DNA of 24,000 bases from Thiolinea sp. (GTDB taxonomy: Bacteria; Pseudomonadota; Gammaproteobacteria; Thiotrichales; Thiotrichaceae). A model generated the notes under the pieces. That model searched no databases. It saw only the letters and a list, made by a program, of their open reading frames with translations, and was not told where the DNA came from. A program made the position numbers and the translations under genes. The DNA is taken from assembly GCA_049292455.1 (NCBI GenBank), contig JBATRF010000014.1:112318-136317 (forward strand), written 5' to 3'. Positions within the stretch are counted from its first letter, which is position 1. The number at the start of each line of letters is the position of its first letter. Below, piece by piece: positions 7,463-23,383 of the stretch.

Positions 7463-9154
7463 CTAGCTTAATAAGCGCCGTAATAGCGGACTACTGACCC
7501 ATTCCTCACCTGTCAGTAAATAGTGCAGTACTTTTTGATTCTGTGTAGCCCATTGCATTTGTTCATACGCATGATAAGGGGCGCACATCAAGATACGATC
7601 TCCCGCTTGCAACAAAGTTTCCTCATCGGGCACTAGCAAGAGAACATCTACTCTTTTTAACAACAGCGGAATAATAGGAAGATCTTGGTCGCGCTGCTCC
7701 GGCTTTGCAATCACATATTTAAGGGGTACACGCTCGCCTGCTGCACAAGCTCTATACAAAGCGGGCGAATGGCGCGGCGTCACCTTGGTTTCCCATAAAT
7801 AAGGTACTTTATCTTGAGTGATACCAATGATGCGACTTAACAATTGATCGACCCAAGCTTTATCTTCAGCCGCTACCAAACGTAGAAAACTGCGCGCTAA
7901 AGGAGTACGCAACATGGTAAACATCTGGTGCGCAATCACATCGCCGCGATTCATGGTCAATTGGAAATGCGCGCGCTCAAAAATCAGTGAATTATCTTGC
8001 TGACTCTGGCGTGCCACCATAAACAGCTTCGGATTTAACTCGCGAGCTGTCATTAGCACCGATAAGTTAGTAGCATCATCACTAGTAGCAGCAATAATCC
8101 CTACGGCTGAATCAATCCCAGCCAGCTTCAGCGATTCAATATTGGCTTGATAGCCCATTAAACTATTGACTGGCGCATTCGGCAGATCAGTTTTTAAATC
8201 AATTACATGAACTTCAATGCCAATGGCATTCAAACGTCGATATACTGCTTGCCCAAAGCGTCCGTAGCCAATTAACAACCAAGAACCAGGCTTAGGAAAA
8301 CTAGGATCTTTTAGCGACTGATTCGGAATGCCAGTCAGCCATTCACTGAGCAAATAATGACTGGGCTTGGTGATGACTAAATCGAGGCGCTCAGCAAATA
8401 CTTCAAAGGGACTGATGACTTCATTACCGCCAAAGGAACGGATCGAAGTCACAATTTCTGGGCTTTCTGCACGCGCTAACAAGCGTAAATGAGGCTTAAA
8501 TAACTCGGTACTGAGGGCAATCAATAAATTCGCTTGATCAGAGTCGGTGAGCGCGATCACTCCCTTGCAATAAGGGCTGAGCACTCCAGCCCATTCTAAC
8601 ACTTCAGGTTTAGAGGCATCGACCGTCAATGCTAAGGGGCGGCCTAAGGTATCACGCAACTCTAAGGCATTGATCCGATTCTCATCTTTATCCAAAACGA
8701 CGGTACGCACCCCCTCTTGGGCTAAGGCTTGTACTAAGCGCGAGCCAGTGTCGCCATAACCACACACCAGATAAAACGGCTCATGCAATAGTTTTATTTT
8801 GGTACGAAACTTAGACTCACGACGCAAGCGATAAATCGCCGGATCTTGGAGTACCGACAACAAGGAACCAATGCTATATAACCAACCAATGACGCTGGTA
8901 TAAATGGTAATGGTCGTCCACAAGCGCTGTGCATCGGTGAACGCATAGGGAATTTCACCAAAACCAATGGTCGAGGCGGTGTAGCTCACAAAATAGAAGG
9001 CATGAAAATACGACATCATCCAGACATTGCCGTCATTATCTCGACCCGGAATAAGGACAAAGCCAATAATCGAAACGGCATAAATTAGAATTAACGTGAC
9101 CAAGGGCACACGTAGCCGCTTCATGAGAACGTAATAGAGATTAGGTCTAGCCAT
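7463..9154 (-). CDS. Two-TM pore-loop cation (K+-type) channel with two tandem RCK/TrkA-N domains and a TrkA-C-like tail
   Basis: 563 aa. It has an N-terminal TM-pore-TM region with the filter-like sequence YTASTIGFGEIPY. Two Rossmann motifs are present: LVCGYGDTGSRLV...VVLD and LLIGYGRFGQAVY...VIDL. The C-terminal LLQAGDRILMCA resembles TrkA-C. Confidence 0.8.
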   Translation of the reverse strand: MARPNLYYVLMKRLRVPLVTLILIYAVSIIGFVLIPGRDNDGNVWMMSYFHAFYFVSYTASTIGFGEIPYAFTDAQRLWTTITIYTSVIGWLYSIGSLLSVLQDPAIYRLRRESKFRTKIKLLHEPFYLVCGYGDTGSRLVQALAQEGVRTVVLDKDENRINALELRDTLGRPLALTVDASKPEVLEWAGVLSPYCKGVIALTDSDQANLLIALSTELFKPHLRLLARAESPEIVTSIRSFGGNEVISPFEVFAERLDLVITKPSHYLLSEWLTGIPNQSLKDPSFPKPGSWLLIGYGRFGQAVYRRLNAIGIEVHVIDLKTDLPNAPVNSLMGYQANIESLKLAGIDSAVGIIAATSDDATNLSVLMTARELNPKLFMVARQSQQDNSLIFERAHFQLTMNRGDVIAHQMFTMLRTPLARSFLRLVAAEDKAWVDQLLSRIIGITQDKVPYLWETKVTPRHSPALYRACAAGERVPLKYVIAKPEQRDQDLPIIPLLLKRVDVLLLVPDEETLLQAGDRILMCAPYHAYEQMQWATQNQKVLHYLLTGEEWVSSPLLRRLLS

Positions 9155-9537
9155 TAGCGACGGATGCTTAGTGTTTCAGCAACTAATAAGACCACCGAAA
9201 CAATGTTAGCCAATAGTGCTCCACCTGAAATAGAAACAACCGTGACCATCGCTGCGGGTGTGACTCCAGCCTCACTGATGTGAGCCGCCCAGCCCCAAAT
9301 CACTGCAGCCACTAACAACTGAATATCGGCCACTAAACTAGTCGCAAAGAAAATTGCGCCCATATGCGTGCTGTCGCCAAACTTGAGGATAGTCGTAATT
9401 AAACTGACTATTAAGGCTGCGAATAGAATAAAGGTATTGTGGTAGATCGGATTAGTCATATCGCCCACGAAAAAAGCGAAGTTGAGAGTTAAAGCCAGCA
9501 CGATAAAAAAGCCGAAAATTACTTTTTCTAAATTCAT
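9154..9537 (-). CDS. Small hydrophobic membrane protein (~4 TM), function unknown
   Basis: 127-aa ORF that is almost entirely hydrophobic segments. A GGGAAG sequence lies upstream of the ATG at 9537. Its TAA stop overlaps the channel ATG (TAATG at 9152-9156). Confidence 0.65.
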   Translation of the reverse strand: MNLEKVIFGFFIVLALTLNFAFFVGDMTNPIYHNTFILFAALIVSLITTILKFGDSTHMGAIFFATSLVADIQLLVAAVIWGWAAHISEAGVTPAAMVTVVSISGGALLANIVSVVLLVAETLSIRR

Positions 9538-9676: not shown

Positions 9677-10423
9677 ATGCGTATTCCTCGCTTTTATTGC
9701 CCGATTGAACTTGAATTAAAGCAAACCCTTATACTGCCAGACGAAGTCTTTCGGCATGCCATTCAAGTTTTACGCTTACAAGTCGGGGGAAATCTGCTGC
9801 TCTTCAATGGGCAAGGCGGTGAGTATCTGGCTGAATTAATCGAAGTGGGTAAGCGCTCTGCTACCGTGATGCTAAACAGCTTTAACTCCACTCATAAAGA
9901 ATCACCTTTAGAACTGACTTTAGTGCAAGCCCTGCTTAAACCAGACAAAATGGATTTTGCCTTGCAGAAAGCCGTGGAACTAGGCATAACTAGCTTTCAG
10001 CCACTGATCACCCAACGCAGTGTCGTACGGACTGATAAAGAAAAAATTGAGAAAAAACTTCAACATTGGCAAGCCGTAGCGATCAGTGCCTGCGAACAAT
10101 GTGGCCGGACTCACTTACCCTCCATTCAAGTACCACAAACCTTAAACCATTACCTTAGCAACTTAGATAGCACTAGCCACTCTGTGATCTTAGCGCCTGA
10201 TAGCACCAAAGATTTAACTCAAATTACGGTAGCCAGCCAGAAACTAGCCGTCATAATTGGCCCAGAAGGTGGTTTTACTGACGAAGAAGTCCAGCTGTGC
10301 TTAGAGGCGGGTATACAAGCTGCTTCTCTAGGGCAGCGGATTTTAAGAGCCGAAACCGCCAGTACTAGTGTCATCGCTATTCTACAGCTACTGCATGGCG
10401 ATTTAGGGATTCGGCGTAGTTAA
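9677..10423 (+). CDS. rsmE: 16S rRNA (uracil1498-N3)-methyltransferase RsmE
   Basis: 248 aa. It begins MRIPRFY... and contains ...QHWQAVAISACEQCGR... and ...IGPEGGFTDEE...LGQRILRAETA, which match the RsmE/SPOUT family pattern. Confidence 0.9.
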   Translation: MRIPRFYCPIELELKQTLILPDEVFRHAIQVLRLQVGGNLLLFNGQGGEYLAELIEVGKRSATVMLNSFNSTHKESPLELTLVQALLKPDKMDFALQKAVELGITSFQPLITQRSVVRTDKEKIEKKLQHWQAVAISACEQCGRTHLPSIQVPQTLNHYLSNLDSTSHSVILAPDSTKDLTQITVASQKLAVIIGPEGGFTDEEVQLCLEAGIQAASLGQRILRAETASTSVIAILQLLHGDLGIRRS

Positions 10424-11359
10424 CTGCTGCTCGGTTTGCACAAAATACTCATCAATCGTTAAAGTAGGTTTTAAGCGTAGATCCCAAGCACTTAAATTAC
10501 GATTGAAATTGGCTTGACCGGTAAACTCATTGCCTACTGCCCATTGATCAGTTAAGTCCATCGCCTGATAAACTAATAAAGGTGCACTAAACAATAAGGC
10601 TACCCCTAAAGCAGACCAACGCTCAGCATGGTGTACAAGGCGGATATACACATAAAACAAGAGTGGTATTAATAAGAAATTACTCAGTAATAATAAATAA
10701 TTTAAAGGCCAATTAGCAGTAAAGAAATAATTTAAACCATGACCTAATTCACCCAATAGATGGGGAACTAGCATACACAAAGATGCTAGACCCAAAGCTG
10801 GAAAAAATTCCCAACGCTGATTAGCTAAACGGCTAATACCGGCGATAATTAAAGCTAAAGCAATCATGCCCAATAAATAAGGCATCACACTGCTGAAATA
10901 ATAAATCAGTTCTTTATTAAAGATACTCTGAATATAAGCCTCATATAAAAACGCTGCTACCGTTAATGAGGCTAAGGCAATCGAGCAGACTGGTCTGCAA
11001 AATACTCTTAGCCAGCCACCACAACGACTCGCACTGGCTTGTGCAACCTGCATGCCACTGGTTAACAGCCGAGCACGCCGATTACCAATCCGCAAATTCG
11101 CAGGCTGTGCTAAGGTTAGGATGGACTCTTGCAAGCCTCTACCATTTAAGCGTGTGCCATTTTCTTTCGATAAATTACGTAAAGCCAAACCTTGATCAGT
11201 CTGGTCGATTTCTAAGTGATAAGCAGAAACAGTCGGGTCTGAGAGGATAATATCATTATCTAACGCACGGCCAATCCGTACTGGAAATTGAGTTAAATTA
11301 TGATATTGATTTAAGGGGCGTAGCTGTATTTCCAGCAAAATGGTATCTAAGTTTGCCAT
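10403..11359 (-). CDS. FHA-domain protein with a C-terminal polytopic membrane region
   Basis: 318 aa. Residues ~20-100 carry the FHA signature residues (VRIGR, VSAYH, ENGTRLNG). Residues ~115-265 form 5-6 hydrophobic segments, followed by a ~50-aa polar tail. The ATG at 11359 overlaps the upstream protease gene by 13 nt (ATGGCAAACTTAG). Confidence 0.8.
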   Translation of the reverse strand: MANLDTILLEIQLRPLNQYHNLTQFPVRIGRALDNDIILSDPTVSAYHLEIDQTDQGLALRNLSKENGTRLNGRGLQESILTLAQPANLRIGNRRARLLTSGMQVAQASASRCGGWLRVFCRPVCSIALASLTVAAFLYEAYIQSIFNKELIYYFSSVMPYLLGMIALALIIAGISRLANQRWEFFPALGLASLCMLVPHLLGELGHGLNYFFTANWPLNYLLLLSNFLLIPLLFYVYIRLVHHAERWSALGVALLFSAPLLVYQAMDLTDQWAVGNEFTGQANFNRNLSAWDLRLKPTLTIDEYFVQTEQQLTTPNP

Positions 11360-12642
11360 TTGAAATTCTCAAACACTTGCTTCACTAGCAGCATGGATTC
11401 TTTGAAATCGACGCCTGTCAAAAATAACTCAAACAAAAATCCTTGGTGCTTTTGACTCACCATTGCACCCGTCACTAAAACATCACTCAAGCCGCTATAG
11501 CGCAAATAATCACGGTGACAGACTGTCATTTTAAAGGCTTGGCTGGCGATATCGACAAATTGAGTATCACATTTAAACTCAGTGACATTTTCCTTGCTGG
11601 ATCGATTATCCGTTTCATCCGTATTTTGCGCTTCATACATACGATAAAAACGCGGCGGAATCATTTTTTCGCTCTCATACCAAGTATATTGGTATTGCAG
11701 ACTACCTACACTGAGTTTCTCATCTAAGTAAATCTCGCGTTCATTCGAGCAATTCACCGAAATCACATTGACTAAGCCACGATCCTCATCCGCTTCGCTA
11801 CCATCCCAACAATTAATCGATTTATCAATACGGCTAGGTACTTGAAAATTGCCTACTGCAACTAATTTCCAAGGATTAGACTTAATGCGCTTGAGCATGT
11901 CGATACTGCTGGCTTTGAGCTGCTGCACGATAGAATCATGCAGGTTTTTGGCTGGGATAAAGTTACGCGCTTTGACCTGCGCTAACAGTGCGTCTAAATA
12001 GTCAGTGGCTACTAAAAAACTAACCGCATTCCCTGCGGTCGCTACATTCACGCCAATCACTGCGCCTGCTTGATTTAAAGCAGGGCCACCACTCATGCCT
12101 GAATTCAAATTGCCTGAGAATAGGATGTTTTTATCCTCACTCTCAGTCAGTAGGCCATTGTTAGTGCCCGTGACTACTGAAAATCCTAAACCTAAGGGAT
12201 TTCCAAAAGCATACAGGGTCGCGCCTTTTTCAGGAATGTCAGCTGTTTTTAACGGTGTACCCAAGTCTTTATCAGCTGCTAACACAGCTAAATCGTGCAA
12301 CACATCGACATCAATCAGATTGAGCGAGCCTGTGGAACCGTCCGTTCCAAGATAATCAATCGAGTAAGTATCGGGATCATTGATATACGCACTGACGACA
12401 TGATAATTCGTAGCGAGCAATTGAGCCTGTTCAACCACAAAACCTGAACCTATCGTGCGCTTATGCCCAGTTGTCCGATTAATGACTCTAATTTGATAAA
12501 TGGAATGCTGTACCTCAGCATATAAACTTGAGGAGCGATCAACAGCCTGTACACTCACAGGCTGTACAATCAACAGGATCATTAGTAATAAGCAGCAGAG
12601 TTTTGGTAGCTCACTATAGTAATAATTACGTATACCAATCAC
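11347..12642 (-). CDS. Secreted/periplasmic trypsin-fold (S1, Trypsin_2-like) serine protease with an unassigned ~210-aa C-terminal domain
   Basis: 431 aa. The GTG start at 12642 is preceded by GAGG with 5-nt spacing. It has a signal-peptide-like N-terminus (...LLLMILLIVQPVSVQA/VD). The putative triad is His in ATNYHVV, Asp in HDLAVLA and Ser in NSGMSGGP. No PDZ-like region was recognised. The C-terminal half contains 4 Cys and matches no family I know. Confidence 0.8.
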   Translation of the reverse strand: MIGIRNYYYSELPKLCCLLLMILLIVQPVSVQAVDRSSSLYAEVQHSIYQIRVINRTTGHKRTIGSGFVVEQAQLLATNYHVVSAYINDPDTYSIDYLGTDGSTGSLNLIDVDVLHDLAVLAADKDLGTPLKTADIPEKGATLYAFGNPLGLGFSVVTGTNNGLLTESEDKNILFSGNLNSGMSGGPALNQAGAVIGVNVATAGNAVSFLVATDYLDALLAQVKARNFIPAKNLHDSIVQQLKASSIDMLKRIKSNPWKLVAVGNFQVPSRIDKSINCWDGSEADEDRGLVNVISVNCSNEREIYLDEKLSVGSLQYQYTWYESEKMIPPRFYRMYEAQNTDETDNRSSKENVTEFKCDTQFVDIASQAFKMTVCHRDYLRYSGLSDVLVTGAMVSQKHQGFLFELFLTGVDFKESMLLVKQVFENFKWQT

Positions 12643-12669
12643 AAAAACCTCAAATCGACACCGAACGCT

Positions 12670-13953
12670 TTATTTTATTAGAGCGAATACTTCGCGGGCG
12701 GCTGCGATAGTTGTATTAATATCCTCTTCTGAATGGGCAGTTGACATGAAACCCGCCTCGAATGCAGAAGGTGCTAAGTAAATGCCGCGTTCTAACATGC
12801 CGTGAAAGAACTGATTAAACTTGGGCACATCACAAGCAGTTGCTTGTTGGTAACTAGTGACTTGGGGTTCGCTGGTGAAAAACAAACCAAACATTCCACC
12901 AACCTGAGCTGTTGTGAACGGAATTTTCGCCTGTTTCGCAGCAGCCTCTATACCTTTGACTAGCTGAGTCGTCTTTGCGTTCAATGCGGGATAAAAATTG
13001 TCACGGCTAATAATTTCCATCATTTTTAAACCCGCCGCCATTGCAATCGGATTACCTGACAAAGTACCCGCTTGATAGACTGCCCCCAACGGTGACAGTT
13101 TAGACATAATGTCACGCCGTCCACCAAAAGCACCGACTGGCATACCGCCGCCAATAATTTTGCCTAAAGTGGTTAAATCAGGCTTAACCCCATATAACTC
13201 CTGTGCACCACCGCGTGAAACTCGAAAGCCCGTCATCACCTCATCAAAAATCAGTACCGTGCCATGCTGATCACAAACCTCACGTAAGGTTTCTAAAAAG
13301 CCGGGTGCGGGGGGAATGCAGTTCATATTTCCACAGACTGGCTCGACAATAATGCAGGCAATTTCATCGCCACGCGCAGCGAAAACTTCACGCACTTGCG
13401 CGCTGTCGTTGAAATTAAGGGTTAGCGTATATTGTGCAAGTTCAGCCGGAACACCCGGAGAACTAGGCTGACCAAAGGTCAATAAACCCGACCCCGCTTT
13501 CACTAACAGTGAATCACCATGCCCATGATAACCACCTTCGAATTTCACTATGAAATTGCGCCCCGTGAAGCCACGCGCTAAGCGAATGGCGGACATAGTC
13601 GCTTCCGTACCAGAGCTAACCATACGAAGCATTTCCATTGAAGGCATGATTTCATTGATTTTTTCGGCCATCTGCACTTCTTGCGCGGTCGGAGCACCAT
13701 AGCTCAAACCTAATAAAGCGGCTTCGCGCACCGCTTCCACCACTTCTGGATGCGCATGCCCAGCAATCATTGGCCCCCATGAACCGATATAATCAATATA
13801 ACGCTGGCCGTCCACATCATACATATAAGCGCCTTCAGCACGCGCAATAAAGCGCGGCGTGCCGCCCACTCCACGAAAGGCGCGTACTGGTGAATTTACT
13901 CCGCCCGGAATCGTTTTTTGGGCTTGTTGGAATAAGGCTTCAGATTTGCTCAT
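12670..13953 (-). CDS. hemL: Glutamate-1-semialdehyde 2,1-aminomutase
   Basis: [26 protein letters not shown]... is the canonical HemL N-terminus, and the protein belongs to the class-III aminotransferase family. The ATG at 13953 has AAGAGG 7 nt upstream, so the 14 extra codons in the ORF track are probably not translated. Confidence 0.95.
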
Positions 13954-14005
13954 GATGGGACCTCTTAAGCATGCAAAGGAATAGGCGGCGGACAATCAGC
14001 CTGCA

Positions 14006-14818: not shown

Positions 14819-15943
14819 ATGACACATTTAGTATTAATCGGTGGAGGGCATGCCCATGTAGCAGTCCTGAGCGCTTTAGCCCAACAGTCCTTACCTAATT
14901 TGCGCTTGACGGTGATTAGCCCACAAGCCTATCAAACCTATTCAGGTATGCTGCCGGGCTGGTTGGCGGGACATTACAGTCTTGAAGAATGCCAAATTAA
15001 CTTGGCGCCTTTAGTGGCTGCGGCTCAAGGTGAATTAATCCTTGATAAAGTCATCCGCTTAGATGCTAATCAGCAATGCCTAGAAACAGCCAGCGGGCAA
15101 CTGATTCACTATGATGTACTCTCCATCAATAGTGGTAGCGAAACAGCTTTACCTGCTAATAGTGCTAGCAACTTAATCCCGATTCGCCCTTTAGAACGCT
15201 TATTAACTGCTTGGCCACAGATTTTAAATCATGCCCAGCAAGACAATTATCAGCTAGCAGTGTTAGGCGGAGGTGCTGCTGGCATCGAGTTAGCACTGGC
15301 TATTCAATATGCTTTCCAGCAAAAAGGCGCTGCAGCTCAAGTGCATTTAATAGCACCTAAACTCTTAGCGGATCACTCGCCGACCGTACAACAGCGTGTA
15401 CAAGGGCAATTAGCTAAAGCAGGGGTTCAAGTTCACTCTGCCAAGGCCAGTATCGAAAATGGAGTGCTTTTCCTTGAAACCGGTGAATCCATTCAAGCCA
15501 ATCAAATTCTTGCGGCCACTGGCGCAAAAGCACCCGCATGGTTAGCAACTTCTGGTTTAACAGTGGATTCACACGGCTATATTGCGGTGAATGCTCAACA
15601 CCAAAGCCGCTCACACCCTAATGTGTTTGCCGCTGGTGATTGCAGCTCGCGTGAAGATTTAAACTTTGGCCGCTCTGGCGTGCATGCTGTGTATGCAGGA
15701 AAAGTGTTGGCGCATAACCTGCCTGCTTTTATTAATCAGCAGAGCCTGCAAAGCTATTACCCGAAAAAGCGCTCACTGTACTTACTTGCGACAGGCCCCA
15801 AACATGCGATTGCCTCTTGGGGAACTTGGAGTGCGAGTGGCACTTGGGTTTGGCATTGGAAAAATCACATCGATCAAAGTTTTATGCGACACTATCGCAT
15901 GAAAACTAGCCCACTATTAAACCCTGCCGAGCAGCAATCATGA
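14819..15943 (+). CDS. NDH-2-like FAD-dependent pyridine nucleotide-disulfide oxidoreductase family protein
   Basis: 374 aa. It has an N-terminal Rossmann motif LVLIGGGHAHV, then YSGMLPGWLAGHY, a second dinucleotide motif LAVLGGGAAGIELA, and FAAGDC near the C-terminal third. From memory it resembles the subfamily found fused N-terminally to SelD in some genomes (TIGR03169); this is not verified. Confidence 0.75.
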   Translation: MTHLVLIGGGHAHVAVLSALAQQSLPNLRLTVISPQAYQTYSGMLPGWLAGHYSLEECQINLAPLVAAAQGELILDKVIRLDANQQCLETASGQLIHYDVLSINSGSETALPANSASNLIPIRPLERLLTAWPQILNHAQQDNYQLAVLGGGAAGIELALAIQYAFQQKGAAAQVHLIAPKLLADHSPTVQQRVQGQLAKAGVQVHSAKASIENGVLFLETGESIQANQILAATGAKAPAWLATSGLTVDSHGYIAVNAQHQSRSHPNVFAAGDCSSREDLNFGRSGVHAVYAGKVLAHNLPAFINQQSLQSYYPKKRSLYLLATGPKHAIASWGTWSASGTWVWHWKNHIDQSFMRHYRMKTSPLLNPAEQQS

Positions 15944-18090
15944 AAAAATCACTGCTGCTAGCCAGCGTTCTATTACTGATTATTTTATTTTTCGTTTTCG
16001 ATCTCGATCGTTATTTAACCTTAGAGCAGCTCAAAGCTAGCCAAGCGCAATTTGCTAGTTGGCAAGCAGAGCATCCTTGGTTATTCGCCTTAGGTTATTT
16101 TGTTATCTATGTGCTAATCACCGGACTTTCGCTACCGGGTGCAGCCATTTTGACTTTAGCAGGGGGAGCAATTTTTGGTTTATGGCAAGGCTTATTACTC
16201 GTTTCCTTTGCCTCCTCTATCGGTGCTACGCTGGCCTTTCTCGCTTCCCGCTATTTATTTCGTAATGCTGTCGAGCAGCGTTTTAGCAAGCAATTAGCAG
16301 CGATCAATCAAGGCATTGCTAAAGAAGGTGCTTTTTATCTGTTCACCTTGCGCCTTGTGCCGCTATTTCCTTTCTTTATTATTAACTTATTAATGGGTCT
16401 CACCCAGCTGCCGACTCGTACTTTTTATTGGGTGAGCCAATTAGGTATGTTGGCAGGCACGATTGTATATGTGAATGCTGGTACGCAGCTCGCGCAAATC
16501 TCTAGCTTAAGTAATATCCTCTCCCCTAGCCTGCTGTTATCTTTCATTTTACTGGGCATTTTTCCTTGGATAGCTAAAGGTATTTTGGCTTTTATTCAAG
16601 GTCGACGAGTTTACCAAGGGTTTACTAAGCCGAAGCAATTTGATCGCAATTTAATTGTAATTGGTGCAGGTTCAGCCGGTTTGGTTTCTTCCTATATTGC
16701 AGCGGCTGTCAAGGCTAAAGTCACCTTGATTGAAGCGCATAAAATGGGCGGAGACTGTTTAAACTATGGCTGTGTTCCGAGTAAAACACTGATTAAAAGC
16801 GCTAAAGTCGCCCAACAAATTCGACACGCCGCTGATTATGGAATCGAGAGCCCTGCCCCTACTGTTCAATTTTCGCAAGTCATGCAGCGGGTACAGGCTG
16901 TGATTGATGAAGTAGAGCCGCATGATAGTGTCGAACGCTACACTCAATTAGGCGTTGAGGTCTTACAAGGCTATGCCAAGCTGCTTGATCCTTGGACTGT
17001 CGAAATTAAATTCCCAGATGGCTCCAGCCAACGTCTTAGCGCTCGCAGCATTATTTTAGCCACTGGCGCACAAGCGAATATTCCTGAATTTCCGGGGATT
17101 GAGAACTCTGGTTATGTGACCAGCGACACCTTATGGGAACGGTTTGCTGCCCTAGAGCAAGCGCCTGAGCATGTAGTGATTTTAGGCGGAGGCCCGATTG
17201 GTTGTGAGCTTGCGCAAGCCTTAACTCGCTTAGGCTCAAATGTTAGCATCATTGAAAAATCGGCACGCATTTTAGCCCGTGAAGATAGCGATGCTGCGCA
17301 AATTGCCGCCCAAGCCTTACAAGCGGATGGTGTAAAACTATTGACTGAGCATCAGGTACTACGCTTTGAGCAAAGCGGCACTAGCAAACAAGTCATGGTG
17401 CGAACCCAAGGCCAAGAGTTAGCCATTCCTTATGATCAAGTTATTATCGCTTTGGGCCGCAAAGCACGTTTAACAGGGTTTGGTTTAGAAGAGCTAGGCC
17501 TGCCAACTGAGCGCACTATCTCTACCAATGAATACTTAGAAACTTTATTTCCGAATATTTATGCCGCAGGCGATGTCGCAGGGCCTTATCAATTTACCCA
17601 TGTCGCCGCCCATCAAGCCTGGTATGCCAGCGTGAATGCTTTGTTTGGGCAGTTCAAACGCTTCAAAGCGGATTATCGAGTCATTCCGCGCGTCACCTTT
17701 GTCGACCCAGAAATTGCCAGCGTGGGCTTCACTGAGCAAGAGGCACAAGCTCAAAACATCGCTTATGAACTCAGTCATTTTGAATTGGCCGAACTGGATC
17801 GTGCAATTGCCGAGGGCACGAAAACGGGCTTTATTAAAGTATTAACTGTGCCGGGTAAAGATAAGATTTTAGGTGTGACGATTGTGGGCGCACAAGCAGG
17901 CGAGTTATTAGCAGAATATGTGCTCGCCATGAAACATGGGTTGGGCTTGAATAAAATCTTAGGCACGATTCATAGCTATCCGACTTTGGCGGAAGCGAAT
18001 AAATACGTAGCTGGTACTTGGAAACGTCAACATACCCCAGAACGTTTGCTGGCTTGGGTGGCACGCTATCACGCTTGGCGACGCGGCTAA
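15940..18090 (+). CDS. Fusion protein: DedA/TVP38/TMEM64 (SNARE-associated) membrane domain + class-I flavoprotein disulfide reductase
   Basis: 716 aa. Residues 1-~220 are polytopic and carry the LPGAAILTLAGGAIFG TVP38-type motif. Residues ~235-716 have IVIGAGSAGL, the redox-active GGDCLNYGCVPSK, VILGGGPIGCE, YAAGDV and the C-terminal HSYPTLAE His-Glu dyad. There is an ATGA overlap with the upstream gene. Confidence 0.85.
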   Translation: MKKSLLLASVLLLIILFFVFDLDRYLTLEQLKASQAQFASWQAEHPWLFALGYFVIYVLITGLSLPGAAILTLAGGAIFGLWQGLLLVSFASSIGATLAFLASRYLFRNAVEQRFSKQLAAINQGIAKEGAFYLFTLRLVPLFPFFIINLLMGLTQLPTRTFYWVSQLGMLAGTIVYVNAGTQLAQISSLSNILSPSLLLSFILLGIFPWIAKGILAFIQGRRVYQGFTKPKQFDRNLIVIGAGSAGLVSSYIAAAVKAKVTLIEAHKMGGDCLNYGCVPSKTLIKSAKVAQQIRHAADYGIESPAPTVQFSQVMQRVQAVIDEVEPHDSVERYTQLGVEVLQGYAKLLDPWTVEIKFPDGSSQRLSARSIILATGAQANIPEFPGIENSGYVTSDTLWERFAALEQAPEHVVILGGGPIGCELAQALTRLGSNVSIIEKSARILAREDSDAAQIAAQALQADGVKLLTEHQVLRFEQSGTSKQVMVRTQGQELAIPYDQVIIALGRKARLTGFGLEELGLPTERTISTNEYLETLFPNIYAAGDVAGPYQFTHVAAHQAWYASVNALFGQFKRFKADYRVIPRVTFVDPEIASVGFTEQEAQAQNIAYELSHFELAELDRAIAEGTKTGFIKVLTVPGKDKILGVTIVGAQAGELLAEYVLAMKHGLGLNKILGTIHSYPTLAEANKYVAGTWKRQHTPERLLAWVARYHAWRRG

Positions 18091-18114: not shown

Positions 18115-19290
18115 ATGCAATTCAAATTTCTCAATTTAACCGCGCTAGCACTCGCTAGTAGCCTTAGTTTTAATGTGCAAGCGGCTGAAACCGATTGGGC
18201 AAAGATCGAACAGACTGCTAAAGGCCAAACGGTCTATTTCAATGCTTGGGGTGGCGGTGAAAATATCAATAACTATCTTGAATGGGCGGCTGAACAAGCC
18301 AAGCAACGTTATGACATTACGGTGAAGCATGTGAAAATCACCGATGCCGCTGAAGTGGTCAAACGCATTCAAACCGAGCAACAAGCAGGGCGCACGACCG
18401 ATGGCTCCGTCGACTTAATTTGGGTCAATGGTGAAAATTTTAGCGCCCTTAAGCGTGGGAAATTATTGTACGGGCCGTGGGCAGAGCAATTACCCAATTG
18501 GGTTAATGTCGATACTAAGAAGCCTGTTCAGCAAGATTTCTCAGAGAGCACCGATGGCTTAGAAGCACCGTGGGGAACTGCACAGCTCACCTTTATTGCT
18601 GATCGTAGTAAAGTCGCTAGCGCTCCTGATTCAGCCACTGCTTTATTAGAGTTTGCCAAGCAAAATCCAGGACGCGTCACTTATCCCAAACCACCTAGCT
18701 TTCATGGCACTACTTTTCTCAAACAATTACTGCTAGAGCTAAGCGCTGAGCCTAGCGCTTTAACTAAACCTGTCGATCCTGCTCAATTTGAGACGATCAC
18801 TAAGCCACTTTGGGAGTACCTTGATCAACTGCATACCGTCGCTTGGCAACAAGGCAAAAGTTTCCCCGCTAGCGATTCAGAAATGCATCAAAAATTAGCA
18901 GATGGTGAATTATTGATTTCCCTCACTTTCAATCCTAATGAAGCAGCCAGCCTGATTGAAAAAGGCAGTTTACCGAAAACCGCTTATAGCTTTGGCTTCA
19001 AGCAAGGCACGATTGGCAATGTGCACTTTGTAGCGATTCCCTTCAATACCAAAGCGAAAGAAGGCGCACAAGTCTTTGCTAATTTTTTACTTTCCCCTGA
19101 AGCACAAGCCCGTAAAGCCGATGTGAAAGTTTGGGGTGATCCGAGTGTGTTGCTGGCTGATAAGTTACCAACTGCGAACAAAGAGGCCGCCGCCAGCACG
19201 CTACCTGCTGACATACCCACCTTAGCCGAGCCGCATGCGAGTTGGGTGGAAGCTTTGGAAAAAGCATGGTTGCAGCGCTACGGCAGCTAG
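18115..19290 (+). CDS. ynjB: ABC transporter periplasmic substrate-binding protein, YnjB-like
   Basis: 391 aa with the signal peptide MQFKFLNLTALALASSLSFNVQA/AE. AGGA lies 8 nt upstream of the ATG. The size, the gene order (binding protein, double-length permease, ATPase, CDP-alcohol transferase) and the YnjF homologue downstream match the E. coli ynjBCD...ynjF cluster as I remember it. Confidence 0.65.
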   Translation: MQFKFLNLTALALASSLSFNVQAAETDWAKIEQTAKGQTVYFNAWGGGENINNYLEWAAEQAKQRYDITVKHVKITDAAEVVKRIQTEQQAGRTTDGSVDLIWVNGENFSALKRGKLLYGPWAEQLPNWVNVDTKKPVQQDFSESTDGLEAPWGTAQLTFIADRSKVASAPDSATALLEFAKQNPGRVTYPKPPSFHGTTFLKQLLLELSAEPSALTKPVDPAQFETITKPLWEYLDQLHTVAWQQGKSFPASDSEMHQKLADGELLISLTFNPNEAASLIEKGSLPKTAYSFGFKQGTIGNVHFVAIPFNTKAKEGAQVFANFLLSPEAQARKADVKVWGDPSVLLADKLPTANKEAAASTLPADIPTLAEPHASWVEALEKAWLQRYGS

Positions 19291-20948
19291 GCTTGCAGAA
19301 GCTGACGGCAAATAACTTGGCTAAACGTGCTCCCCATAATCCAGTCGATTGGATGTTATGGGGAGTCGCTTGGTTAGGCGTGCTAGCTATTTTGGGGTTG
19401 CCATTGCTGGGGTTAATCCCAGCCCTTAGTGAGGGTTTGAGTGCAAACAATGGGCACTTGCTTTGGGCTGACTCACAAACCTTACCTGCCTTAAAACTCA
19501 CCCTATTTTCAGCAGGTATTTCGACTGCTTGGTCTTTGTTCTTAGCCTGTTCGCTGGTGTTTTTATTTTACCCCTCGCGAACTTGGCAGCGTATACAGCG
19601 ACAATTACCTCTTTTTTTAGCCATGCCCCATGCGGCTTTTGCGATTGGTTTGGTCTTCTTGTTAGCGCCCTCTGGCTGGCTAGTACGTTTAATCACGCCC
19701 TTATTTACTTGGACAGCACCACCGCATTGGATCACCACGCAAGATCCTTATGCCTTGAGTTTGACGCTTGCCTTAGTTCTAAAAGAAACTTGGTTTCTAC
19801 TCTGGGTGCTCACTAGCCTGCTTAATCAAGACTGGCTGCTCAAACAAAGTCTAGTCGCGCAGAGTTTGGGCTATGGTCGCTGGCAAATAGGCTGGCAAAT
19901 TCTATTTCCGCAGTTATTAAGGCGCTTAGCGTGGCCGTTACTCGCAGTGTTTGCTTATGGTTTGTCGGTGGTGGATATGGCGCTAATTATAGGTCCATCG
20001 ACTCCGCCGACTTTGGCCGTGCTCGCTTGGCAATGGTTTACCGATCCTGATCCAACTCAGCAATTAAAAGCGCAGAGCTTAGCTTTGCTGCTGATTGGCT
20101 TATTGCTGGTGGGTGTAGCCTTGGGCTATTTAGCTTATTGGCTATTCAATAAAATGCTTGCGACACCGACCGGCAGACGTAATAAGCTGCGTACTTATTC
20201 TGTGTTTAAACTAGCGCTCAGCAGCCTACTCAGTTTGCCTATTTGGCTAGCTTTGTTTTTATTACTGCTATGGTCAGTAGCAGGTTCATGGTTTTTTCCG
20301 CAGATTTTTCCTGCTAACTTCAGTTTAAATGCTTGGCAGCAAGCTGATTTAGTGCCGTTTGGCACTACTATTTTCATTGCTAGTTGCTGTGTTTTCATCG
20401 CCCTACCCTTAACTCTGCTTTGGTTAGAATGGGGGAACAAGCAGCAAGCTTGGTTATATATTCCCTTAATTATTCCTGCTTTACCTTTTACTGCTGCACA
20501 GTATCAAATCGCTTTAGTATTAGATTTCGACGGGAATTTGGCTGCCGTGATTTGGAGCCATTTAGCTTGGGTCTTGCCCTATATGCTGCTGACGCTCGCA
20601 GGAGCTTATCGGAATTTTGACGAGCGCTTTGTGCTCACGGCAAAAACCTTAGCTTATAAGCATTGGCAAGCCTGCCTTTATATTAAATGGCCGATGCTGA
20701 TTCGCCCGATCTTAGGGGCTTGTGCCGTAGGTTTTGCGGTGAGCGTAGCGCAGTATTTGCCCACTTTATTTATTGGCGGCGGGCGGATTGAAACAGTTAC
20801 TACTGAAGCAGTCAGTTTAAGCGCAGGCGGCAATCGCTCAAATTTAGCCGTGCAAGCGGTGCTGCAAGCCTTATTGCCCCTAATCGCTTTTGTCTTCGCC
20901 GCTAGTGTGAGCCAGTGGTTGGGACGTAAACACCAAGGATTAAAATAA
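19266..20948 (+). CDS. ynjC: ABC transporter permease, fused double-domain type, YnjC-like
   Basis: Polytopic ORF of ~12 TM and ~530-560 aa. The start is uncertain. Candidates are ATG 19266 (overlaps ynjB by 25 nt), TTG 19293 (2 nt after the ynjB stop) and ATG 19353. The stop overlaps the ynjD ATG (TAATG). Confidence 0.7.
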   Translation: MVAALRQLGLQKLTANNLAKRAPHNPVDWMLWGVAWLGVLAILGLPLLGLIPALSEGLSANNGHLLWADSQTLPALKLTLFSAGISTAWSLFLACSLVFLFYPSRTWQRIQRQLPLFLAMPHAAFAIGLVFLLAPSGWLVRLITPLFTWTAPPHWITTQDPYALSLTLALVLKETWFLLWVLTSLLNQDWLLKQSLVAQSLGYGRWQIGWQILFPQLLRRLAWPLLAVFAYGLSVVDMALIIGPSTPPTLAVLAWQWFTDPDPTQQLKAQSLALLLIGLLLVGVALGYLAYWLFNKMLATPTGRRNKLRTYSVFKLALSSLLSLPIWLALFLLLLWSVAGSWFFPQIFPANFSLNAWQQADLVPFGTTIFIASCCVFIALPLTLLWLEWGNKQQAWLYIPLIIPALPFTAAQYQIALVLDFDGNLAAVIWSHLAWVLPYMLLTLAGAYRNFDERFVLTAKTLAYKHWQACLYIKWPMLIRPILGACAVGFAVSVAQYLPTLFIGGGRIETVTTEAVSLSAGGNRSNLAVQAVLQALLPLIAFVFAASVSQWLGRKHQGLK

Positions 20949-22230: not shown

Positions 22231-22258
22231 GATAATTATTGCGAGCGAGGTGCTGAAA

Positions 22259-23383
22259 ATGCTTAAGCCTTTATTGACTATTTCTGTGTTGGCTTTCACC
22301 ACACAAGCGGCCTTAGTACAAGCGGATCAAGTCATTGAATTGCCCGTGGAATCAACACGCGCCGAGGTAACTCTTGATTATGCTAATGCCCGGTCGGTGC
22401 AACCTAAACTGACAGGCGCTCTGGATTTGGATCTGAATGCTAACTCAGCAGTGCGAGCAGCCGGTCAAGCAGGCTTTACTCAAGGAGGTGTTGGTAGTGG
22501 CCAGACATCTCCTGTGCAACTGTTAGATAGCGCTACGAGTGAGTCTTTAGCCCAACAGGCAGTTGCAGATAGCCGCGCTTATGGGACTGCAGGTCTGCCC
22601 TTCACGACTTCGCGGGTAGACATGGGTGGGCTGCAACTTTCAAAAGTGGATTATTTCCGGCGTGCAGGGCGCTTATTTTTTAAAGTGGGCGCTGACACTG
22701 GCGTTTGTTCGGCTTCTCTGATCAAGCCGGGCGTAGTAGTCACGGCTGCACATTGTGTTGCTGAGTTTGGCAGCAATACAGGTTATACCAATTTCCAATA
22801 CATACCTGCTTACTATAAAGGCCAAGCCCCTTACGGAGTTTGGACTGCAGCCAAAGTTTATGTCATGGATAGTTATGTGAATGGCAGTGCCAGTTGCGCG
22901 CAACCTGGTATTGTTTGCACCAATGATATTGCGGTGATCAAATTAGCGCCTAAAGCGGGTAAATACGCAGGGCAGCAGACGGGCTGGTTTGGTTATGCTT
23001 GGAATGGCTTTGGGTTTGTGGAAGGCAAAACACAAATAACTCAATTAGGCTATCCCAGTTCGCATGATGGTGGTGAGCTGATGCAGCGCACGGATGCGGG
23101 TGGACAAGTCTTCGCGGACGTATCCAATAATACCGTGATTGGTTCACGCCAAACAGGTGGCTCAAGTGGTGGCCCTTGGTTAGTCAATTTCGGTGAAGCC
23201 GCCAAACTTCAAGGTACTACTCTGGGTATCGATGGAAAAATGAATATAGTCGTGGGCACAACCAGCTGGGGGCCGAATGATAGTGCCTTAAAATTTATGG
23301 GAGCTAGCCCTTTTACCAGCACAAATATAGTACCCTTGATGAAAGCAGCCTGCCCTGCTGCCAATACGGCAGGCTGCAAGTAG
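22259..23383 (+). CDS. Secreted trypsin-like (S1 family) serine protease with a long N-terminal pro-region
   Basis: The ATG at 22259 has GAGG 8 nt upstream; the ORF track begins 9 nt earlier at a GTG. The signal peptide is MLKPLLTISVLAFTTQAALVQA/DQ. The triad context is VVTAAHCV (His), NDIAVIKL (Asp) and TGGSSGGPW (Ser). About 130 residues precede the catalytic domain. Confidence 0.8.
   Translation: MLKPLLTISVLAFTTQAALVQADQVIELPVESTRAEVTLDYANARSVQPKLTGALDLDLNANSAVRAAGQAGFTQGGVGSGQTSPVQLLDSATSESLAQQAVADSRAYGTAGLPFTTSRVDMGGLQLSKVDYFRRAGRLFFKVGADTGVCSASLIKPGVVVTAAHCVAEFGSNTGYTNFQYIPAYYKGQAPYGVWTAAKVYVMDSYVNGSASCAQPGIVCTNDIAVIKLAPKAGKYAGQQTGWFGYAWNGFGFVEGKTQITQLGYPSSHDGGELMQRTDAGGQVFADVSNNTVIGSRQTGGSSGGPWLVNFGEAAKLQGTTLGIDGKMNIVVGTTSWGPNDSALKFMGASPFTSTNIVPLMKAACPAANTAGCK

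Follow-up and report, generated by a model that had tools for sequence, protein, structure and literature searches.

A two-gene module was identified on the minus strand of a 24,000-nucleotide (nt) stretch of Thiolinea sp. contig JBATRF010000014.1, referred to here as the window. The first gene encodes a secreted HtrA-like serine protease and the second, which overlaps it, encodes an inner-membrane protein (the partner) with an FHA domain, five transmembrane (TM) helices and a short C-terminal tail (Table 1). The favoured reading is that the two proteins form a two-subunit envelope protease complex, in which the protease is docked on the tail of the partner and the FHA domain acts as a cytoplasmic regulatory input; this reading is tentative and was given a probability of roughly 0.42. 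The evidence for it came from the strict linkage of the two genes across relatives, the embedded start codon of the partner gene, the domain composition of both proteins, the loss of the FHA domain in some loci and the co-variation between the tail and the protease C-terminal domain (C-domain).

One genome per GTDB species was scanned, which gave at least 569 relatives, and the best 80 loci were examined. These loci were from Thiotrichaceae, Chromatiales, Sedimenticolaceae, Permianibacter, Cellvibrionaceae, Porticoccaceae, Lysobacterales, Cardiobacteriaceae (Dichelobacter nodosus and Suttonella), a Moraxellaceae metagenome-assembled genome (MAG), Colwellia and Thalassotalea, and beyond Gammaproteobacteria from a Flavobacterium isolate and MAGs of Omnitrophota, Fibrobacteres and Planctomycetales. 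The gene encoding the FHA-TM protein was located immediately downstream of the protease gene and on the same strand at 75 of the 80 loci. Of the five exceptions, three were contig ends while the other two (L064 and L078) carried a partner without an FHA domain, and a membrane partner was found next to the protease at all 77 evaluable loci. The reverse test started from three FHA-TM proteins that were 26-30% identical to the window partner, and each had a Trypsin_2 protease gene (411-423 amino acids, aa) upstream with a 13-nt overlap, in flanks that differed from each other (metG and rnfABCDGE at one, rapA and selU at another). Since the arrangement recurs in every evaluable relative locus, its recurrence is far above chance. 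A preliminary description of the window, made from its letters and a list of open reading frames (ORFs), had asked whether the two families are conserved neighbours elsewhere, and the linkage and the reverse test showed that they are obligate ones.

Clustering of all flanking ORFs at the 80 loci showed no third conserved gene, and the pair is a chromosomal, self-contained two-gene module. The most frequent flanking genes were queG (20 loci), hemL (15) and rsmE (15, as the downstream convergent neighbour). The gene hemL was considered as a member of the module and was rejected as it adjoins the pair only in its 15 loci, which are close relatives. Read-through from hemL, as suggested in the preliminary description, is possible in the window, where the hemL stop at 12670 is 27 nt from the protease start and neither a promoter nor a terminator signal in the spacer exceeded the shuffled background, but it does not make hemL part of the module. 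A Ser/Thr kinase near the pair was found at 1 of the 80 loci in a regular-expression scan of all ORFs and no PP2C phosphatase was linked. The window itself, as already observed, had no Pkinase or PP2C domain among its ORFs of at least 100 aa. The single kinase was a Hanks-type kinase (Pkinase, E 7e-30) at 13046-13557 (+) of locus L043, a Sedimenticolaceae MAG, where it is cut by the contig end; it was rejected as a member of the module and regarded as a chance neighbour, being two genes downstream of the pair with a fumarylacetoacetate-hydrolase gene between. In Permianibacter, a gene of about 1850 aa for a bacterial alpha-2-macroglobulin, a periplasmic protease inhibitor, was present immediately downstream of the pair (L037, 12318-17873, +; also L038, L039 and L041), an adjacency which is genus-restricted and suggestive.

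The genomic contexts also bear on a possible role as an anti-phage defence or conflict module, with the protease as effector and the partner as membrane sensor. Trypsin-like peptidases and FHA domains are both found in conflict systems (PMC7159879), and the PADLOC models RT-Protease_XI and PDC-M35A matched the protease weakly, but over the generic protease domain only and with no PADLOC match for the partner. The contexts were all core housekeeping (hemL, rsmE, queG, tsaE, metG, rnf and rapA), the C-domain was found in none of 72,556 plasmids and 50,697 phage records, the protease is predicted to be periplasmic, and neither a reverse transcriptase nor an NTPase was linked, which makes a defence role highly improbable. 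The Trypco1/2 partners of trypsin-like peptidases belong to vWA-MoxR conflict systems, which are different from this pair (PMC7159879).

The overlap between the two genes, as first reported in the preliminary description, was read in the window as 13 nt with the letters ATGGCAAACTTAG. Across the loci the overlap was 13 nt in 51, 10 nt in 13 and 16 nt in 6. The start codon of the partner (ATG in 66, GTG in 4 and TTG in 1) was located within the conserved Trp429 codon of the protease at all 71 clean junctions, and the second residue of the partner is therefore always A, E, D or G. This embedded start codon suggests stoichiometric co-production of the subunits of a complex, and its near-universal presence suggests that the arrangement is old.

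For the protease, inspection of the N-terminus showed a hydrophobic segment followed by a small-x-small signal-peptidase site (cleavage between VQA and VD), and an alignment of 37 homologues with 47-84% identity to the window protein showed the same pattern, together with an invariant triad and four invariant cysteines in the C-terminal half. Homologues within Thiotrichaceae had 48-98% identity. The AlphaFold2 (AF2) model of the protease, with a mean predicted local distance difference test score (pLDDT) of 83.8, had an N-terminal helix at residues 5-25 followed by a low-pLDDT stretch, and an HtrA-like barrel at residues 48-212. The protease is placed in the periplasm because of the signal peptide and of four cysteines that are conserved among relatives, and it appears to be soluble through a cleavable signal peptide and not membrane-anchored. 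Pfam Trypsin_2 matched aa 65-198 (E 1e-19). The His81/Asp117/Ser184 triad was invariant in all 78 full-length relatives and the GxSGG motif was likewise kept in 78 of 78, in line with the signal peptide and full triad described earlier. Foldseek against the PDB returned the protease domains of HtrA, DegS, DegP and Deg1 at E~1e-16, with a TM-score of about 0.8 on target for HtrA and DegS. Judged by its sequence, the protease is catalytically competent and HtrA-like.

The region behind the protease domain had been described as lacking PDZ domains and as a cysteine-containing domain that could not be assigned, and both statements held. Pfam gave no PDZ match for the full protease at E≤1 or for 31 isolated C-domains at E≤10, and no meaningful match of any kind at residues 220-431 of the full protein or, at E≤10, in the same 31 C-domains. 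A C-domain profile built from 31 diverse loci had no match in PDB sequences at E≤10. In the AF2 model the domain (residues 234-425) is compact, with the order helix, five strands, helix, four strands and helix. Its four cysteines, C278 (INCWDG), C298 (VNCSNE), C358 (FKCDTQ) and C375 (TVCHRD), were all kept in 77 of 78 relatives and probably form two disulfides, C278/C298 and C358/C375. An exhaustive search of 1.84 billion representatives with a hidden Markov model of the C-domain produced 690 proteins at E≤1e-3, of which 458 reached E≤1e-10 (clusters at 50% identity). Nearly all cluster representatives were about 415-445 aa with the domain at about 215-430, and the source annotations of cluster members and homologues were generic names only. 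A word-indexed protein search with the profile produced 11 matches. Stand-alone C-domains were considered and rejected, as the short matches examined begin inside GMSGGP and are truncated gene calls. Because it was found only in this architecture and without any match to a known family, the C-domain is taken from these searches to occur solely behind this protease domain, as a family-specific replacement of PDZ. Foldseek with the full protease model gave protease-domain matches only; alignments that ran on along PDZ-containing HtrAs or RsgI9 had a root mean square deviation (rmsd) of 10-17 Å and were uninformative on the C-domain.

The partner homologues had 26-98% identity to the window protein and were all about 315-340 aa. 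The preliminary description had counted five to six TM segments and a polar tail of about 50 aa. The AF2 model of the partner (pLDDT 79.6) had an FHA sandwich at residues 7-100 followed by five long helices, not six, and a tail of about 45 aa consisting of a low-pLDDT coil and then a short helix. Lys and Arg together averaged 2.2 in loop 2 and 1.5 in loop 4, against 0.7 in loop 1 and 0.15 in loop 3. From the AF2 helices and the positive-inside rule, the partner is predicted to have its N-terminus in the cytoplasm and its C-terminus in the periplasm, and since the loop charges obey this rule the TM3-TM4 loop and the tail were placed in the periplasm. The extent of periplasmic exposure had been left as a check on the earlier hypothesis, and the prediction gives both a conserved loop and the tail. 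The TM3-TM4 loop had Y/F211 in 73 of 73 partners, while in the tail motif Y/F285 was kept in 57, L289 in 61, D293 in 39 and R295 in 45 of them. None of the top 50 Foldseek hits matched the membrane part, and no Pfam family exceeded the threshold there. At locus L021 (11218-12220, +) the gene was present as two ORFs of 267 aa and 93 aa, which may be due to a frameshift or an assembly error in this MAG.

The FHA region of the partner was covered at aa 20-95 by both Pfam FHA and Yop-YscD_cpl, with the latter scoring slightly higher. Foldseek with this part returned the FHA domains of GarA, OdhI and FhaA with a TM-score of 0.8-0.9 on target and an rmsd of about 1.9 Å, and these closest structures are phosphothreonine (pThr) binders. 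Among the 73 partners, the pThr-contact residues were kept as follows: G30 in 73, R31 in 72, S45 in 57, H48 in 71, N67 in 70 and G68 in 67. The signature residues GR, SxxH and NG reported earlier for the window protein were therefore not degenerate on alignment but held across the family, and the FHA domain is canonical as far as fold and pThr-contact residues can tell. These residues bear on a second explanation, in which the partner would be a cognate membrane inhibitor of the protease, as in protease/inhibitor operons, or a one-time folding or release factor, without phospho-signalling, and the FHA domain would serve for oligomerisation or for a non-phosphorylated ligand. The tight 1:1 co-expression, the viability of variants without FHA and the lack of a linked kinase or phosphatase would all fit it, as would the fact that some bacterial FHA-like domains (YscD/SctD) do not bind pThr, together with the slightly higher Yop-YscD_cpl score. 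However, strong purifying selection acts across phyla on the pThr-contact residues, most clearly on R31, H48 and N67, and the closest FHA structures are genuine pThr binders, so that this explanation was considered unlikely.

The two loci with an FHA-less partner were both from Cardiobacteriaceae MAGs (L064, 11158-11721, +, and L078, 4401-4955, +). The partners of 184-187 aa aligned from TM1 through the tail, and their genes abutted the protease stop codon, in translational coupling with the protease gene. At both loci the triad and cysteines of the protease were intact, as were the five TM helices and the tail motif of the partner. Other Cardiobacteriaceae formed a series: Suttonella kept the pThr residues, D. 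nodosus (L051) had R31S and S45A, and L068 had S45G and N67D. The FHA domain is seemingly decaying across host-associated Cardiobacteriaceae. Because loci with an absent or decayed FHA domain retain the protease, the TM region and the tail, the connection from the protease to the TM region and tail was taken as the core of the module and the FHA domain as an accessory that can be lost.

Co-variation between the regions of the two proteins was explored by partial correlation of pairwise distances for 72 pairs using simple p-distances. The divergence of the tail was associated with that of the protease C-domain (partial r 0.34, bootstrap interval 0.24-0.44), compared to a partial r of 0.02-0.05 with the protease domain, the FHA domain and the TM region of the partner itself. 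The association was present in both the near and the far subsets. The divergence rate of the TM region was nearest to that of the tail and the rate of the FHA domain was equal to that of the C-domain; since neither of these rate-matched regions showed an association with the tail, matched rates fail to explain the co-variation.

The docked complex was favoured because of the translational coupling, the modularity revealed by FHA loss and the co-variation between tail and C-domain. In the proposed mechanism, the protease would be exported by its cleavable signal peptide as an active HtrA-like enzyme in which a disulfide-stabilised C-domain takes the place of PDZ. The partner would reside in the inner membrane, the FHA domain facing the cytoplasm and the flexible, conserved tail facing the periplasm. 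The C-domain would dock physically on this tail, perhaps also on the TM3-TM4 loop, and docking would tether the otherwise soluble protease at the inner membrane and allow allosteric control there, comparable to that of PDZ-bound peptides on HtrA. Binding of a phosphothreonine protein by the FHA domain would determine where the membrane subunit is located, how it oligomerises or which conformation it adopts, and the state of the membrane subunit would in turn set the activity of the periplasmic protease, with the signal running from inside to outside. The substrates would be other envelope proteins. The fullest form of this proposal, a new trans-envelope device in which cytoplasmic pThr read by the FHA domain switches the docked protease through a peptide-binding domain that replaces PDZ, is put forward with considerable doubt.

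Several points weigh against the docked complex. The signal peptide of the protease was assigned by eye only. The C-domain fold was left unclassified by Foldseek, whose matches were dominated by the protease domain. The FHA-less evidence comes from two related MAGs whose systems are possibly decaying, and the co-variation is exploratory, with pairs that are not independent and p-distances taken on a 34-column tail. In addition, apart from the one locus in 80, no Ser/Thr kinase or PP2C phosphatase was linked to the pair, and the pThr input is presumed.

The preliminary description had likened the pair to the DegS/RseA logic of regulated proteolysis with the FHA domain as the output. The functional unit of protease, membrane protein and FHA domain was well supported, while the FHA domain as a cleaved-off output was not. 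In E. coli, DegS is membrane-anchored and is gated through PDZ by the C-termini of outer membrane proteins, RseA is a single-pass protein that sequesters a sigma factor, and degS and rseA are not adjacent, with rseP also unlinked. The window pair is like DegS-RseA-RseP in that a periplasmic HtrA-type protease is tied to an inner-membrane protein with a cytoplasmic regulatory domain. It is unlike it in the soluble-looking protease, the FHA partner with five TM helices where RseA has a single pass and an anti-sigma domain, the overlapping genes and the existence of FHA-less variants. An RseA-like FHA output is doubted because the partner is polytopic, the protease appears soluble and the FHA domain is absent or decaying in several Cardiobacteriaceae.

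Signalling from outside to inside would mean that an envelope cue activates the protease, the tail of the partner is cleaved and the FHA domain is released or inactivated, changing the fate of its pThr ligand. The strict linkage of the protease to a membrane protein with a cytoplasmic signalling domain agrees with such a scheme, and so does the similarity of the protease domain, which is nearest to the HtrA/DegS family. The tail, being flexible, conserved and predicted to be periplasmic, is a plausible cleavage site, and its co-variation with the C-domain fits substrate recognition too. The scheme was nevertheless considered improbable: the known site-1/site-2 substrates are single-pass proteins, the protease is predicted to lack a DegS-like anchor, and FHA-less variants that keep the protease, the TM region and the tail have nothing left to release. 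Conserved translational coupling of this kind, through an embedded start, is less typical between an enzyme and its signalling substrate than between the subunits of a complex or in enzyme/inhibitor pairs, and the flanking ORFs of the 80 loci held no linked site-2 protease or other downstream component.

The pair was also compared with other known systems. The HtrA/S1C proteases (DegP, DegQ, DegS and M. tuberculosis HtrA) share with the window protease the chymotrypsin fold, the triad, the periplasmic location and a C-terminal regulatory domain behind the protease domain, but the window protease has a Cys-containing domain of about 200 aa instead of PDZ, and an FHA membrane protein is its obligate partner. 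Its NCBIfam scores for HtrA-type models were 23-60 bits overall against cut-offs of 408-756 bits (degP_htrA_DO 59.8 vs 416, DegS 41 vs 423 and DegQ 31 vs 756). MarP (Rv3671c), which acts on the outer side of the cytoplasmic membrane, likewise has an S1 protease domain but no PDZ and is a useful model for how the module may work; the NCBIfam MarP_fam_protase model matched aa 34-223 with E 4e-13, at 49 bits against a 250-bit cut-off. MarP carries its TM helices and its protease on one polypeptide. The window TM helices are on a separate partner, and MarP has no FHA domain or equivalent of the C-domain.

FHA membrane proteins such as FhaB/FipA (Rv0019c), the Rv1747 ABC transporter, SctD/YscD and TagH similarly have a cytoplasmic FHA domain fused to one or more membrane segments, by which cytoplasmic (phospho-)signals are coupled to an envelope machine, whereas the window partner has five helices and a short tail and is paired with a protease. 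The NCBIfam scores of the partner were below the cut-offs for FhaB (31 vs 125), TagH (TIGR03354, 19.6 vs 120) and SctD (TIGR02500, 11.5 vs 86), and the match to OdhI was also below the cut-off. No type III or type VI secretion or ABC transporter genes lay close to the pair, whose neighbours were housekeeping genes.

The ectodomain of Clostridium thermocellum RsgI9 (PDB 7sjy) also has an S1C fold followed by a non-PDZ domain on the external side of the membrane, within a trans-membrane signalling protein. Its S1C-NTF2 bi-domain was at Foldseek ranks 3 and 5, with a TM-score of 0.53 on target and an rmsd of about 16 Å across the long alignment. The S1C domain of RsgI9 is a protease-like cellulose-binding sensor (PMC12203970). 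In the window protease the triad is invariant, and as only the protease part of RsgI9 superposes there is no support for an NTF2-like C-domain. The genes of PopC and PopD form an operon, PopC is subtilisin-type and PopD is a soluble cytoplasmic FHA-containing protein. In Myxococcus xanthus, PopC, which has no signal peptide, is a protease restrained by a partner that forms a complex with it (PMC6434023). No sequence relationship exists between PopC/PopD and the window pair. Overall, the pair was classed with regulated HtrA-type proteolysis of the periplasm, here with a partner in the membrane and with two unclassified domain families; it resembles DegS/RseA and MarP in logic and belongs to neither.

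Table 1. Features of the protease/partner module in the window (positions of the window; all on the minus strand).
Feature	Position	Strand	Details
Protease gene	11347-12642	-	431 aa, GTG start; secreted HtrA-like (S1C) serine protease; Trypsin_2 E 1e-19
Predicted signal peptide, aa 1-33	12544-12642	-	Ends ...VSVQA, followed by VD; by inspection; aligned in homologues
Chymotrypsin-fold protease domain, aa 48-212	12007-12501	-	Strands as in HtrA
Catalytic His81	12400-12402	-	Codon read from sequence
Catalytic Asp117	12292-12294	-	Codon read from sequence
Catalytic Ser184 (GMSGGP)	12091-12093	-	Codon read from sequence
Family-specific C-terminal domain, aa 234-431	11350-11943	-	AF2, mostly pLDDT 85-92
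Gene overlap, 13 nt	11347-11359	-	Partner ATG inside protease AAA-TGG (Lys428-Trp429) codons
Partner gene (FHA / 5-TM / tail inner-membrane protein)	10403-11359	-	318 aa; ORF list
Cytoplasmic FHA domain, aa 5-100	11060-11347	-	Gly30-Arg31, Ser45-x-x-His48, Asn67-Gly68; Pfam FHA E 1.7e-11
Five TM helices	10532-10993	-	aa 123-144, 151-180, 185-213, 217-242, 247-276; AF2 model
Predicted periplasmic C-terminal tail, aa 277-318	10406-10531	-	Motif [FY]xxxLSxxDxRLxPTxS[IL][DE]x[FY]; short helix 302-313
Spacer between hemL and protease gene, 27 nt	12643-12669	-	GAGG at 12648-12651, 5 nt before GTG start

The other genes of the window, among ORFs of at least 100 aa, were nuoA-F, sbmA/bacA, a TrkA-N channel, DUF6394, rsmE, hemL, DUF3047, oxidoreductases and an ABC transporter. 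The gene rsmE (9677-10423, +) is convergent to the partner gene and overlaps its 3' end by 21 nt (10403-10423). The hemL ORF (12670-13995, -) was listed from a TTG at 13995; translation probably begins instead at the ATG near 13953, because the homologue at locus L001 begins with MSKSEALF..., which corresponds to residue Met15 here. Two genes at 7463-9537 (-), for a DUF6394 membrane protein of 127 aa and a TrkA-N/ion-channel protein of 563 aa, overlap by 1 nt at 9154; they recur jointly in five related loci and are maybe another conserved pair without an assigned function. A second trypsin-family ORF of 377 aa was identified at 22250-23383 (+), downstream of ABC transporter and CDP-alcohol phosphatidyltransferase genes, with Pfam Trypsin at aa 150-341 (E 4e-7), and it is no paralogue of the module protease as the C-domain of that family is absent. 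At 15940-18090 (+), a 716-aa ORF fuses an N-terminal VTT (DedA/TVP38-type) membrane domain to a pyridine-nucleotide-disulphide oxidoreductase and its dimerisation domain, with a 4-nt overlap between the start of the ORF and the preceding Pyr_redox_2 gene. Finally, a 568-aa ORF at 19242-20948 (+), between solute-binding protein and ABC ATPase genes, had no Pfam match at E≤1e-5; it is presumably the permease of that ABC transporter and its listed TTG start, which gives a 49-nt overlap with the preceding gene, is perhaps wrong.

A full-text literature search, with subscription journals outside its coverage, produced no description of the protease/partner pair, and the module is widespread, tightly conserved and apparently unstudied. 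Envelope quality control and stress signalling depend centrally on HtrA-type proteases, whose regulation is understood almost wholly through PDZ domains. The present family, with its 690 clusters in several phyla, has an unclassified domain in place of PDZ and is wired by an embedded start codon to a membrane protein with a canonical pThr reader. Its cultured carriers, which include Thiothrix eikelboomii, Dichelobacter nodosus, Suttonella, Leucothrix arctica, Colwellia and Thalassotalea, should make experiments feasible. If the favoured reading is true, two new domain families would be defined, namely the protease C-domain and the module of five TM helices plus tail, and periplasmic proteolysis would be linked to Hanks-type Ser/Thr signalling, of which little is understood in Gram-negatives.

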